Of a DNA stretch of 64,000 nt, positions 35,146 through 55,913 are shown one piece after another (position 1 is the first letter of the stretch; every line of letters begins with the position of its first letter). The stretch is from a virus, in IMG/VR virus record IMGVR_UViG_3300044629_000431, positions 64,001 through 128,000 of that record. One strand, written 5' to 3'. The notes beneath the pieces were generated by a model. That model saw only the letters and a list, made by a program, of their open reading frames with translations. It was not told where the DNA came from and made no database searches. A program made the translations under genes and the position numbers.

Positions 35146-35229
35146 TAGGGCGAGCGGGAATCGAACCCGCACGGGAATACTCCCAGCAGATTTTAAGTCT
35201 GATACGGCTACCAGTTACGTCACCGCCCC
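35146..35229 (-). tRNA. tRNA-Leu (UAA)
   Basis: Cloverleaf GGGGCGG...TCGCCCTA; anticodon loop CT-TAA-AA; long variable arm; GGTTCGATTCC T-loop. Confidence 0.9.
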
Positions 35230-35241
35230 ATTTATGAGACC

Positions 35242-35270
35242 ATTATAACTCAGAAAGTCTTTATGGTCAA
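35242..35270 (-). promoter_or_regulatory. sigma70-type promoter for tRNA-Leu
   Basis: TTGACC-N17-TATAAT. Confidence 0.65.
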
Positions 35271-35273
35271 GAA

Positions 35274-35353
35274 TGCCGTGTGTTTGTGAGACTAAATCAA
35301 AACCGTTTGATAGATGCCCCACTGGATTCTATCATAAGTTTTGAACCACGGCA
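35274..35353 (-). ncRNA. candidate structured RNA following tRNA(CAU)
   Basis: Nested 7-bp stems TGCCGTG/CACGGCA, TCAAAAC/GTTTTGA, TGATAGA/TCTATCA. Confidence 0.5.
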
Positions 35354-35355
35354 AG

Positions 35356-35428
35356 TGCTGGTTGTCGGGATCGAACCGACCTGTCTTGCCTTATGAGGGC
35401 AGTGCTTTCTCCAGAGAGCTAAACCAGC
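35356..35428 (-). tRNA. tRNA with CAU anticodon (Met or Ile2)
   Basis: GCTGGTT...AACCAGCA; anticodon loop CT-CAT-AA; GGTTCGATCCC. Confidence 0.85.
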
Positions 35429-35839
35429 GTTTGCAGAAATTCTTTCCAACTATCACCATAGTGTATCATATGATGGCAGTTGTGGCAAAGAAGATCGCAT
35501 TTATCAACTTCTTCTTTGATAAGTTCCCATTTTCTATTTGCGAAACTTCTCCCGTCAAGTTTTAGTTTTTTTTTGGGAAGGATCTCTATGGTGAAAACAT
35601 AAAGTTGCTGGATTATCTTCACCACATTTTTGACACTTACCACCTTTATATTGAAGTGCCTCCCATTTATTGGAATATGCACGTTCTTTTTGTTCAGTAT
35701 AAGTGTTTCTGTTCATAACAAAAGGATCATTTTTATAACGCCACTTTTGACGGCAGGTTTCATTACAATAAAGTTTTGCTCTTCCACCTTTTCTTGTGTG
35801 TTGTAGAACTTCTTTCCCACACGCTTTACAATTAATCAT
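35419..35839 (-). pseudogene. HNH homing endonuclease split by a frameshift
   Basis: CQKCG...LCFHH in one frame and CDLLCHNCHHMIH in another; the break lies at an A9 run (35566-35574); A8 would restore SQKKLKLD. Confidence 0.8.
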
Positions 35840-35887
35840 TTATGTTATGAACTTATACATACACCTATTTAGATAAAGGCGTATTTT

Positions 35888-35967
35888 GGGCGAGGGTGTC
35901 TGACCACGATAATCTACGATTCAGCAGAGGGGACCCTTCGTTTAATACAACGTTCCTTGTTGTACCC
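35888..35967 (-). ncRNA. candidate structured RNA following tRNA-Ile
   Basis: Stems TACAAC/GTTGTA, AGGGT/ACCCT, CTGA/TCAG; no ORF. Confidence 0.4.
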
Positions 35968-35969
35968 GA

Positions 35970-36041
35970 TAGGAACACTGGGAGTTGAACCCAGACTAAC
36001 CCGTTATAAGCAGGCCGCTCTAACCATTAAGCTATGCTCCC
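35970..36041 (-). tRNA. tRNA-Ile (UAU)
   Basis: GGGAGCA...TGTTCCTA; anticodon loop CT-TAT-AA; GGTTCAACTCC. Confidence 0.9.
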
Positions 36042-53794: not shown

Positions 53795-54430
53795 TTAGAC
53801 CCATTCAAGGGCTTCGGCAACCGTTGGAAATTGTTCGGAAAACACCTTCTTACATTCCAGAGCAATGTCCATATGCTCCTTCTGAGTGCCATTAGCAGAA
53901 CGAAGATTGATATAGTGAATCCAACTACGGCAAGAACCCGTCATATAGATGCGTGTAGGCGTCGCTAAGGGCAGTACAAACCTTGCACACTCTTTTGCCA
54001 CACCGTGTGCAAGAAGTTCCTTGTAGAGTTGCATAGAGTGTGCAAAATGGTCTTGAATTTTACTCTGAAGACTTAGTTTCTCATAGTCACCAATATCATC
54101 AATTGAGTTCTGACGGTTCTTAGTGTCCTGGCGGCGAAGGTCAGGAACAGGGATATAATCACTCAATAAAGAACTATCAGCATATCGCTGCGAAAATTCT
54201 TGAAAAGTGAAACTACGGTGGCGCAATATCTGAGCTGCGATACCACGGTTTGTTTCAATCTCCAAACTCATAGACGACTGCTCAAAAACAGACCAATGAT
54301 TGTGCTTAATACAATAACGTAGCAAACCCGCATAGTTTTCAGAATCTTGATTCGCTGGATTAGAAACCCTAGCAATATATGCCATTGTTTGTTCTGCATC
54401 GGGAGTCACACTGATAAGTTTTACGGTCAT
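53795..54430 (-). CDS. thyX: flavin-dependent thymidylate synthase
   Basis: HWSVFE, QILRHRSFTFQEFSQRY, ECARFVLP. Confidence 0.95.
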   Translation of the reverse strand: MTVKLISVTPDAEQTMAYIARVSNPANQDSENYAGLLRYCIKHNHWSVFEQSSMSLEIETNRGIAAQILRHRSFTFQEFSQRYADSSLLSDYIPVPDLRRQDTKNRQNSIDDIGDYEKLSLQSKIQDHFAHSMQLYKELLAHGVAKECARFVLPLATPTRIYMTGSCRSWIHYINLRSANGTQKEHMDIALECKKVFSEQFPTVAEALEWV

Positions 54431-54791: not shown

Positions 54792-54818
54792 AAAAAAAGG
54801 AGGGGATCAACCCCTCCT
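54792..54818 (-). terminator. intrinsic terminator of the riboswitch operon
   Basis: AGGAGGGG-TTGAT-CCCCTCCTTTTTTT. Confidence 0.8.
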
Positions 54819-54974
54819 GTTAAATATTGGTTCCATATCTAAAACTTGTTCAAACCACTCTTTAAGATGTATGCGGTAACAAGACCAATACTTACACCCA
54901 CGATATGTAAGTTGATAACAGGCAGGTTCTCTGCTGTCCTTATCCATATCGTCCCAGTGGTAATGGTAATCCAC
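54807..54974 (-). CDS. DUF4278-like small protein (55 aa)
   Basis: GTG start; LTYRGCKY motif. Confidence 0.5.
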   Translation of the reverse strand: MDYHYHWDDMDKDSREPACYQLTYRGCKYWSCYRIHLKEWFEQVLDMEPIFNRRG

Positions 54975-55057
54975 TATTTAAAAAGAAATTGAATATAAAG
55001 CGACAATAAAGTAATTACAACCGCACAACCTGCGGTAATTTGTAATACTGCGAACAT
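54974..55057 (-). CDS. small hydrophobic peptide (27 aa)
   Basis: MFAVLQITAGCAVVITLLSLYIQFLFK; 1-nt overlaps with neighbours. Confidence 0.45.
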   Translation of the reverse strand: MFAVLQITAGCAVVITLLSLYIQFLFK

Positions 55058-55155
55058 CACTTTGCTCCAACGAGTTGTGCTAGTTGTGCTTGGTGACGGC
55101 GCTCTTCTTTTTGTTTTTGTTCTTTGATAAGTTGTAGGAAGTTTAGCTTTTGCAT
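55057..55155 (-). CDS. small basic helical peptide (32 aa)
   Basis: MQKLNFLQLIKEQKQKEERRHQAQLAQLVGAK; AGGAGG ribosome-binding site; TGATG coupling. Confidence 0.55.
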   Translation of the reverse strand: MQKLNFLQLIKEQKQKEERRHQAQLAQLVGAK

Positions 55156-55292
55156 CACTTATGCCCCTCCTTTACGAACTTAACACCACGATAGGTTTCG
55201 TTGTATTGTTGGGCTTGTTGTTGCATTTGCTGTTGGTATTCGATACGCTTTTGGGTATCGTATTCAACACCTCTGTAAACGACTTTAGACAT
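55155..55292 (-). CDS. DUF4278-like protein (45 aa)
   Basis: Two YRGV motifs (VVYRGVEY, ETYRGVKF); AAGGAG ribosome-binding site; directly after the glutamine aptamers. Confidence 0.8.
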   Translation of the reverse strand: MSKVVYRGVEYDTQKRIEYQQQMQQQAQQYNETYRGVKFVKEGHK

Positions 55293-55324
55293 TAGGTTTT
55301 CTCCTTAGTTTTTTAGGTTAAAGA

Positions 55325-55496
55325 GCGTTCCTTCAGTCGGCTTTTGCGTCTATTTTACACTCCTTTGGAGCAATCTGTTTGATTTCCCAAATCAAGTCAT
55401 TTTTTGCTTGTTTTGGAATATCAACTTTATAAACTCTTCCAATCATTAACTGTGCTTGTAAACAAGTTAATAAGAGTGTTTCCATAGATGAACGAT
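55325..55496 (-). promoter_or_regulatory. glnA-type glutamine riboswitch aptamer 2 (expanded P2 loop)
   Basis: ATCGTTCATCTAT ... ATAGACGCAAAAGCCGACTGAAGGAACGC; P1 CGTTC/GAACG, P2 TCTAT/ATAGA. Confidence 0.75.
55333..55485 (-). CDS. small protein (50 aa) nested in aptamer 2
   Basis: METLLLTCLQAQLMIGRVYKVDIPKQAKNDLIWEIKQIAPKECKIDAKAD. Confidence 0.65.
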   Translation of the reverse strand: METLLLTCLQAQLMIGRVYKVDIPKQAKNDLIWEIKQIAPKECKIDAKAD

Positions 55497-55497
55497 C

Positions 55498-55750
55498 CGT
55501 TCCGAGTCGGCTTACTTCCGTCCTATTCAGTTTAGCACTTAAGTCTCACAACATCCTTTCGGAGTTCTGATAGCAATCGGTCTTCTTTTCTTTGGTCTAC
55601 TACATCGTCGTTTTTAACGATGTCCATTAGTTCCCACGCTGCGTCACAACTTATTGTCACTTGATTTGATTTGGCAAGTTGAGGCGTAGAGATAGAAAGA
55701 AGTGGAACCCATGCTAAAAGCAAAAGTGCCTTAGACATAGGATGAACGTT
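55498..55750 (-). promoter_or_regulatory. glnA-type glutamine riboswitch aptamer 1 (expanded P2 loop)
   Basis: AACGTTCATCCTAT ... ATAGGACGGAAGTAAGCCGACTCGGAACG; P1 CGTTC/GAACG, P2 TCCTAT/ATAGGA, E-loop GGAAGTA. Confidence 0.75.
55532..55738 (-). CDS. small protein (68 aa, signal-peptide-like N-terminus) nested in aptamer 1
   Basis: ORF track; the ATG overlaps the 5' P2 strand. Confidence 0.65.
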   Translation of the reverse strand: MSKALLLLAWVPLLSISTPQLAKSNQVTISCDAAWELMDIVKNDDVVDQRKEDRLLSELRKDVVRLKC

Positions 55751-55758
55751 AGAGGGAT

Positions 55759-55838
55759 ATTATACCTCTATTCTTCTTATATATACAAGTTTTATGTTGA
55801 AACAGTAACAATAGATACAAAAATGTATCCATATTATA
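55759..55838 (-). promoter_or_regulatory. promoter region with NtcA-like box
   Basis: TATAAT at 55759-55764 and 55833-55838; GTA-N8-TAC at 55805-55818. Confidence 0.55.
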
Positions 55839-55913
55839 CTAAAAAGAATGAAGATTTATGAAAACCCTCACGCAAAGAAATTTTGCCGGGAAATTTTCCC
55901 CCGATATGGGAAA

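Follow-up and report, generated by a model that had tools for sequence, protein, structure and literature searches.

A probable glutamine sensor with two interlocked glnA-type cores, each drawn around a small gene, in a cyanophage leader

The DNA analysed here is a stretch of 64,000 nucleotides (positions 64,001 to 128,000 of the IMG/VR virus record IMGVR_UViG_3300044629_000431; hereafter the window), and its minus strand carries, at 55748-55325, all the conserved pieces of a double glnA-type aptamer. In our view it is probable that this element is a glutamine sensor in which two glnA-type cores are nested one in the other and each has its P2 hairpin stretched around a complete small gene, that it forms the 5' leader of an early micro-operon of the phage, and that it works by the mechanism proposed below. 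The source record is a 146-kb T4-like cyanophage of freshwater type, whose closest isolates are Synechococcus phages (Kyanoviridae) from fresh and estuarine waters. An earlier note on this DNA, made from the letters alone, had described a tandem glutamine riboswitch with genes in its P2 loops, and its reading of the letters was accurate, every element being found on the minus strand where it had been placed.

Class and fold of the double element

Rfam searches return no glnA match for this RNA, either at the gathering score in the window (35 bits for RF01739), at E ≤ 10 in positions 55200-55850 (~650 nt), or in the whole 146-kb record. The element is missed because of its 140-220-nt P2 loops, and the expectation of the earlier note that standard covariance searches would overlook it was therefore right, with loop size as the cause. 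The aptamer class was judged from natural short-loop relatives and from searches with the 3' halves alone. In four isolates carrying the same leader, the units with a short P2 score 35.6, 34.2, 33.5, and 28.9 bits with RF01739, and S-CREM1 has its element annotated as a glnA riboswitch. Apart from the P2 loops, the cores of the window are identical to those of these short-loop relatives, which supports the assignment of the RNA to the glnA type. When the 3' halves of the window are searched alone, RF01739 is the best among 4227 families, with 5'-truncated matches of 11.3 and 12.7 bits.

The strands of the 5-bp P1, CGUUC and GAACG, are each present in two copies and are invariant in the relatives. 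The variable P2 lies directly after CGUUCA and directly before the joining strand J2/3, and covaries, and the element is the leader of a nitrogen-related gene of the DUF4278/IF17-like type. Both canonical joining strands are found, CGGAAGUA at 55520-55513 and GAAG at 55334-55331, but they belong to different units, and only in an interlocked fold do they share one junction. Selective binding of L-glutamine has been demonstrated for cellular representatives of the class only (PMC6212724). A search of IMG/VR returned no singlet of this phage type with canonical J2/3-P3-J3/1.

The earlier note had taken the two units for tandem aptamers, that is, for two independent aptamers, each with its own P1 and P3, acting additively on one expression platform. 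Such an arrangement would fit the finding that Rfam aligns each short-loop unit singly (33.5-35.6 bits), and glutamine riboswitches are catalogued as frequent doublets (PMC9481103). The units of the phage element are, however, incomplete when taken one at a time: in the first, J2/3 is canonical but GAACG is preceded by CG alone; in the second, GAAG is canonical and it is J2/3 that is shortened; and in each case the missing canonical strand is supplied by the other unit. The covariation likewise contradicts two separate aptamers, and reveals a helix shared between the units and an inner P1 hairpin. Naming the strands of the shared helix x and y (Table 1), the pair x8-y1 is kept in all 32 distinct units with short loops at both sites, with three pair types (G-C 17, U-A 12, A-U 3) and no mismatch, whereas the closing pair of each unit's own P3, which a local P3 hairpin would need, is unpaired in 20 of the 32. 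Over all loci the same position is U-A in 226, G-C in 42, A-U in 6, and U-G in 2, and mismatched in 3. Compensation is seen at further positions as well; at the other end of the shared helix, the isolate S-SRM01 has C-G in place of A-U at x1-y8, a compensated change that abolishes the stop codon of the second nested open reading frame (ORF2) and lengthens it by five codons; RNA pairing here overrides the end of the ORF.

A second line of evidence comes from a diverse clade of nine loci (L299 and eight others), in which the middle P1 strands have become CAACG and CGUUG while the outer strands stay GAACG/CGUUC, except for the 5' strand of L394, which is CGUUU. The pattern used to find this variant P1 was loose and most of its matches were unrelated, so that only those with riboswitch context were used. 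In this clade the strands pair perfectly if nested, but would leave a C-C and a G-G mismatch in both P1 helices if tandem; strand x is too short for a hairpin, and the shared helix is a perfect AGUCG/CGACU. Since the inter-unit P3 pair covaries and the middle P1 strands have changed together, the two cores are, on comparative grounds, interlocked, one inside the other. RNAalifold, when applied to unit B cut out alone, does close strand b5 with b3 as a tandem P1; this helix follows from the excision and was not counted, because its strands never vary and the cut had removed their true partners.

The nested fold would give two proper three-way junctions. The outer one is predicted to be canonical and to consist of P1 (55748-55744 with 55330-55326, spanning ~420 nt), P2A, CGGAAGUA, the shared P3, and GAAG; its P1 pairing, a5 with b3, follows from the interlocked topology. 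The inner junction would be closed by the hairpin GAACG-GAU-CGUUC and has shortened joining strands. In this model the AGCCGACU copies of the two units pair with each other to give the single P3 that serves both cores. The 3' strand of P2A, AUAGGA (55526-55521), adjoins CGGAAGUA directly. In the unconstrained minimum-free-energy (MFE) fold of the 484-nt leader, P2 and its extension P2a are formed in both units, together with the middle hairpin, i.e., the inner P1.

Genes inside the aptamer and pairing across them

The two genes are tightly fitted into the aptamer. The first two bases of the ORF1 AUG lie within UCCUAU (55742-55737), and UCUAU (55488-55484) overlaps the AUG of ORF2, so that both start codons are indeed in the 5' strand of P2, as the earlier note had claimed. 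It was also right that there is no obvious Shine-Dalgarno sequence: neither AUG is preceded by a Shine-Dalgarno-like run, because the bases in question are invariant aptamer strands. The last codons of ORF2 are the inner J2/3 and strand y, the frame reading through AUAGA, CGCAAA, and AGCCGACU, and its UGA (55335-55333) straddles y8 and the GAAG J3/1 strand just before GAACG (55330-55326), confirming that ORF2 stops in the conserved 3' core of the aptamer. In marine loci such as L173, L215, and L243 the frame at the first site continues through P2A to a UAA composed of the last bases of J2/3 and the base with which the shared P3 begins, mirroring the core UGA of ORF2; both stop codons are conserved aptamer nucleotides.

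That the P2 loops hold real protein-coding genes is borne out by the occupancy of the inserts and by their substitution pattern. Distinct long inserts are filled by one ORF in 71 of 72 cases at the first site and in 116 of 117 at the second, the second-site exception being S-SRM01, whose ORF runs on beyond the extracted stretch. The nested AUG stands 3-6 nt after CGUUCA, and 112 of the 116 second-site ORFs end at the same core UGA. The ratio of nonsynonymous to synonymous substitution rates (dN/dS) is 0.43 in the interior of ORF1, compared with 0.73-1.04 in the off frames, and 0.22 in that of ORF2, compared with 0.92-1.96, with most of the variation at third codon positions in both.

A protein-based search of IMG/VR retrieved 253 loci for ORF1 and 227 for ORF2, and the ORF2 family comprises at least 947 clusters in a large protein database, none of them with a Pfam family. 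The ORF1 protein has a hydrophobic N-terminus that, by eye, resembles a signal peptide, followed by a two-Cys helical hairpin; its AlphaFold2 model (predicted local distance difference test, pLDDT, 66.5) places helices at residues 31-43 and 49-66, forming a putative helical hairpin from the first Cys, and the ORF2 model (pLDDT 83) likewise suggests a helix-turn-helix from the first Cys. Comparison of the two families with hhalign gives a probability of 78% (E 1.9e-5), which, with the helical hairpins of both, lends moderate support to the proposal of the earlier note that the two proteins are paralogous; they probably are. The proteins at the ORF2 position align as one family with two invariant Cys residues. 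ORF1 has no match in Pfam or PHROG, and ORF2 of the window matches phrog_504 weakly (E 0.017); the proteins at the same position in P-SSM4 (5.6e-16), S-SSM7 (2e-21), and P-SSM5 (4e-8) also match this family, in which the marine members are catalogued, and at the first site the marine protein is phrog_6471. Another occupant, of a third type (phrog_13397), lies in the same hairpin in all four loci retrieved through the protein alone. No Pfam family and no fold match in the PDB at E ≤ 0.001 was found for the nested proteins, and their Atlas feature matches all fall below the 0.9 level and are leads only.

Covariation indicates that pairing across the second-site gene is maintained. In ORF-bearing units P2B covaries over 140-195 nt: its positions 3-5 switch among C-G, U-A, A-U, and U-G, and its summed pairing is 5.71, against 4.68 ± 0.19 with shuffled partners, a value reached in none of 2000 shuffles. 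From 58 ORF2-bearing units RNAalifold recovers both P2 and P2a, the latter made of the first and last codons of ORF2; P2a of unit B is 91% paired, three of its six pairs are changed on both sides, and no shuffle out of 500 reaches the observed pairing or covariation score. Inside the ORF itself, conserved structure is nearly absent. Both P2A and P2a have invariant strands in the window's ORF1 family, and shuffles match the observed values in 209 of 2000 and 94 of 1000 cases. The P2 covariation across the ORFs that the earlier note had called for is thus present in the ORF2-bearing hairpin, while P2A of the window family is uninformative; across families P2A shows a few compensatory changes. 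In the short versions of the leader, all four P2A pairs and three of the four P2B pairs counted covary. The non-coding CGUUCA is invariant in 48 of 48 loci found through the ORF2 protein alone and in 47 of 47 found through the ORF1 protein alone (a5 being unchanged in all of the latter), next to ORFs whose dS is ~0.3-1.2, with synonymous sites near saturation. As the same split recurs in hundreds of loci, with invariant strands beside nearly saturated ORFs, the arrangement is far beyond chance.

A local hairpin of ~54 nt (55700-55753, minus strand; −15.1 kcal/mol) can also form at the transcript start and pairs the ORF1 AUG, CCUAUG being matched with CAUGGG; a second, upper stem belongs to it. 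Its conservation extends over 57 relatives, in which one pair varies among A-U, G-U, and G-C.

The same layout is common to hundreds of cyanophage loci. In a sample unbiased with respect to the ORFs, namely IMG/VR loci fetched solely by the junction between the units, 68 units were fully parsed; listing the first site before the second, 28 were short/ORF, 21 short/short, 10 ORF/ORF, and 9 ORF/short. The second site therefore holds a gene in 56% of them and the first site in 28%. All four combinations occur in IMG/VR and in isolates, with genes at both sites in P-SSM4, at the second site in P-SSM5 and S-SSM7, and at neither in S-PM2. A close relative of the window (L104; flanks 96.5% and 93.6% identical) has a 12-nt P2B hairpin instead of ORF2, and other relatives share the upstream part and have a different downstream gene. 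Judged from these comparisons, the nested genes behave as cassettes, which close relatives carry or lack independently.

The junction motif was found in 9 of 185,579 species genomes, eight times on contigs of metagenome-assembled genomes (MAGs) from non-cyanobacterial lineages, which are most likely mis-binned phage DNA, and once on a Prochlorococcus single-cell contig of phage-genome length. From this count and the nature of these contigs, the architecture looks phage-specific.

The inner P1 loop varies as well. In L010 (1464-1491) and similar loci a linker of 20-21 nt, itself a small hairpin, separates the middle P1 strands, making this loop another variable site. In L025 (909-1487), and also in L028, the inner P1 hairpin has a 193-aa ORF as its loop, between these strands. 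This ORF matches phrog_314 'homing endonuclease' (E 1.6e-6) and nothing in Pfam, and a third loop of the same RNA is thus occupied by a gene of mobile-element type.

Table 1. Features of the leader and of the gene that follows it (window coordinates)
Feature	Position	Strand	Details and source
Promoter-like site	55759..55788	-	TTGTAT, 18 nt, TATAAT (-10 at 55764-55759); read from sequence
a5, 5' strand CGUUC of outer P1	55744..55748	-	partner b3, 55330-55326
P2A	55521..55742	-	UCCUAU 55742-55737 with AUAGGA 55526-55521; encloses ORF1
ORF1, 68 aa	55532..55738	-	start 55738-55736, UAA 55534-55532; ORF listing
P2a of unit A, possible extension	55730-55724 with 55540-55534	-	GGCACUU with AAGUGCU; MFE fold
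J2/3 of outer core, CGGAAGUA	55513..55520	-	canonical glnA joining strand; aligned to RF01739 positions
x, 5' strand of shared P3, AGCCGACU	55505..55512	-	partner y, 55342-55335
Inner P1 hairpin	55490..55504	-	a3 GAACG 55502-55498 with b5 CGUUC 55494-55490, loop GAU
Inner J3/1, CG	55504-55503	-	precedes a3
P2B	55349..55488	-	UCUAU 55488-55484 with AUAGA 55353-55349; encloses most of ORF2
ORF2, 50 aa	55333..55485	-	start 55485-55483, UGA 55335-55333; ORF listing
P2a of unit B	55479-55474 with 55362-55357	-	ACACUC with GAGUGU; RNAalifold, de novo
3' core	55325..55348	-	inner J2/3 CGCAAA 55348-55343; y AGCCGACU 55342-55335; then GAAG
3' core, closing part		-	outer J3/1 GAAG 55334-55331; b3 GAACG 55330-55326; C55325
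Likely expression platform	55290..55325	-	CUCUUUA 55325-55319 with UAAGGAG 55307-55301, before AUG 55292; local fold
DUF4278/IF17-like gene, 45 aa	55155..55292	-	PF14105 E 0.0011, 19.7 bits; phrog_5049 E 1.7e-10

A proposed switch and the alternatives to it

The 45-aa gene that follows the element has a strong Shine-Dalgarno sequence, UAAGGAG, and its protein matches PF14105 below the cut-off (19.7 versus 25.3 bits). In the leader of gifB, glutamine binding frees the ribosome-binding site (PMC6212724). By analogy with gifB, and because the Shine-Dalgarno sequence of the DUF4278 gene has a potential pairing partner just 3' of the outer P1, the sensor is most likely an ON switch for this gene, with CUCUUUA and UAAGGAG likely functioning as its expression platform; the platform sequence differs in some relatives.

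In the glutamine-bound form, the folded sensor would bury both nested start codons and, as in gifB, would free the ribosome-binding site of the DUF4278 gene. Folding should block initiation on the nested genes, since their AUGs lie in P2 and a P1 strand takes the place of the Shine-Dalgarno sequence. A ribosome ending ORF1 would cover the 3' strand of P2A and would have to unwind P2, and one ending ORF2 would unwind P2B, the inner J2/3, the shared P3, and the outer P1. With the aptamer helices unwound by terminating ribosomes, folding of the sensor and translation of the nested genes would be mutually exclusive on any one mRNA. On these structural grounds we infer, reasonably in our view, a reciprocal switch between translation and ligand.

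A more far-reaching version, which we put forward only tentatively, is a switch with three outputs, in which high glutamine would lock the fold, silence the nested two-Cys proteins, and turn on the IF17-like gene, low glutamine or ribosomes on the nested genes would reverse this, and the core strands would serve as recombination anchors for cassette swaps. It would be the first riboswitch with its own regulated genes in the aptamer.

Several points weigh against the interpretation of the element as an interlocked, reciprocal glutamine sensor. For the long-loop form, glutamine binding and regulation are predictions. In nearest-neighbour energy the nested fold (−116.7) is no less favourable than the tandem one (−113.8), and either P1 arrangement, if forced, lies 8-11 kcal/mol above the leader's MFE of −125.0, a gap that is expected if the fold needs tertiary contacts and ligand. 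The P1 strands nearly never vary, and the outer P1 rests on the topology and not on covariation of its own. The shared P3 of the window has two C-A mismatches and thus six pairs out of eight, and P2A and P2a of the window's ORF1 family lack a covariation test because their strands are invariant. The local 5' hairpin uses the same bases as P2A and competes with it, the ORF1 AUG being buried either way. A ribosome terminating ORF2 would, moreover, melt the anti-Shine-Dalgarno helix and could activate the DUF4278 gene without ligand. Finally, one locus (L047, ~1491-1720) has kept ORF2 while its last P1 strand has decayed (GAAACA) and its DUF4278 gene has been replaced, so that a nested gene can outlive the sensor.

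This last case would suit the alternative that survives best, and which we nevertheless regard as unlikely, namely that the nested genes are passengers: the P2 loops would be permissive sites for small phage genes, the sensor would regulate the DUF4278 gene only, and any interference from nested translation would be incidental. It agrees with the P2 loop being the variable part of the family, whose short versions covary freely, with presence and absence that are independent at each site and differ between near-identical phages, with the occurrence of at least three PHROG families at the site, and with the homing-endonuclease-like gene in the middle hairpin loop of L025. Against passengers, a nested ORF never comes with a ribosome-binding site or spacer of its own, its AUG always lies in P2, 3-6 nt after CGUUCA, and almost every such frame is bound to a stop codon within the core or next to it. 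In addition, the two ends of ORF2 pair in a further helix that covaries, and the occupants are mutually related proteins and not random genes.

We consider it very improbable that the sensor is dead, i.e., that the long-loop aptamer no longer folds and its pieces are retained for translation initiation, as C-terminal codons, or as anchors for recombination in the exchange of cassettes. Loops of 140-220 nt, a nearest-neighbour model that disfavours closure of P1, a core that encodes the tail of ORF2, and mosaic breakpoints that coincide with the cores are all compatible with such decay. Yet the long-range covariation of P2B means selection for pairing across the ORF, the x8-y1 pair covaries in ORF-bearing loci too, the compensated x1-y8 change of S-SRM01 was made at the cost of the ORF2 stop, and the non-coding 5' strands stay invariant while synonymous sites approach saturation. 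Least credible of all is the plain tandem riboswitch, in view of the inter-unit pair and the variant P1 clade described above.

Relation to known systems and neighbouring features

The closest known relative is the glutamine-I riboswitch (RF01739) in the leader of Synechocystis gifB, which encodes IF17 (PMC6212724): it has the same P1 strands, the A of J1/2, a variable P2, CGGAAGUA, and GAAG, it lies upstream of a DUF4278/IF17-like gene, and the sequence 3' of its P1 can pair with the ribosome-binding site. The phage element differs in having two cores, an inter-unit shared P3 instead of a P3 hairpin, an outer P1 of ~420 nt, and P2 loops that are whole genes (coding as judged by sequence); it is found in phages and not in cells, and the Rfam model is blind to it. 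The short joining strands of the inner core (CGCA..., ...CGGAACG) resemble, by eye, rows of the alignment of glutamine-II, the Downstream-peptide motif (RF01704), which likewise precedes DUF4278-type peptides. There is, however, no Rfam match to RF01704 here, and the strand order of the inner core is a circular permutation, with a P3 taken from the other unit.

Like tandem glycine and other doublet riboswitches (PMC9481103), the element would combine two cores for the same ligand, one expression platform, and contacts between the cores, but its cores are nested and share a helix instead of standing side by side, and both carry genes in hairpin loops. Group I introns with homing-endonuclease ORFs (PMC3984707) also hold a gene in a peripheral loop of a structured RNA whose distant halves have to pair, and there too the gene is a presence/absence polymorphism between relatives. 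In contrast to these introns, the host RNA in the phages is a ligand sensor and not a ribozyme, the start codon is within the closing helix, and the nested proteins are not endonucleases, save for the separate insert of L025. In Mycobacterium tuberculosis, riboswitches are likewise coupled to translation of a small upstream ORF before the main gene (B12, PMC11260477; Mbox, PMC12810186); there the small ORF is reported to follow the aptamer, as part of the expression platform, and not to lie inside it as in the phages.

Cyanophage glutamine riboswitches, their doublets, and their link to DUF4278 are already known (PMC2864571, PMC6212724, PMC9481103, PMC9964418), and a full-text literature search found no publication on genes inside a glutamine aptamer or on the interlocked fold. 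In the original glnA alignment (Weinberg 2010), P-SSM2 and several ocean scaffolds have their ORF2-bearing unit in the unaligned 3' flank. Riboswitch aptamers are treated as compact non-coding domains, which is also what covariance models assume, and the phage element breaks with this picture: a validated class of ligand sensors tolerates whole genes inside a helix and apparently exploits them, with the start codon built into the helix. Given the frequency of genes at the two sites, standard scans must miss a large share of cyanophage double sensors, and surveys according to which phages seldom have riboswitches undercount them. Nested cores with a shared helix would represent a new doublet architecture, and the system is a natural setting in which to study how translation competes with RNA folding over long distances. 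A further outcome is a family of small, uncharacterised two-Cys proteins of phages that would be wired to the nitrogen status of the host. All of this is directly testable, since cultured phage-host pairs exist (P-SSM4, P-SSM5, S-SSM7, and S-PM2).

The 45-aa DUF4278-type protein has eight Gln in ten residues between two YRG motifs, a Gln-rich protein under a glutamine sensor. It is the first of four small ORFs (45, 33, 28, and 55 aa; 54807-55292, minus strand) whose stop and start signals overlap from one to the next, and the series is ended by a strong terminator (54818-54798). The only Rfam match returned for the region of the element, a weak PreQ1-I-like one at 55299-55337 (minus strand; 17.5 bits, E 0.64), is probably due to chance, as it covers the A-rich spacer with its A-run and the Shine-Dalgarno sequence of this gene.

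From the sequence, the transcript would start near 55752. The −35 box of the promoter-like site is weak, with three of six consensus matches, and for this reason a promoter scan did not include the site; relatives have TTGAC at the same spacing together with the same inverted repeat. This repeat, AGAGG...CCTCT (55751-55769, minus strand), holds the TATAAT in its loop and is kept in relatives with compensating changes (AGGGG...CCCCT), and it may be a protein-binding site or a promoter hairpin. Just downstream of the micro-operon, at 53795-54430 (minus strand), lies an ORF judged by eye from its translation to be a ThyX-like flavin-dependent thymidylate synthase, and the isolates have a thymidylate synthase at the same position. 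Three tRNA genes are located further along the same strand, at 35146-36041.

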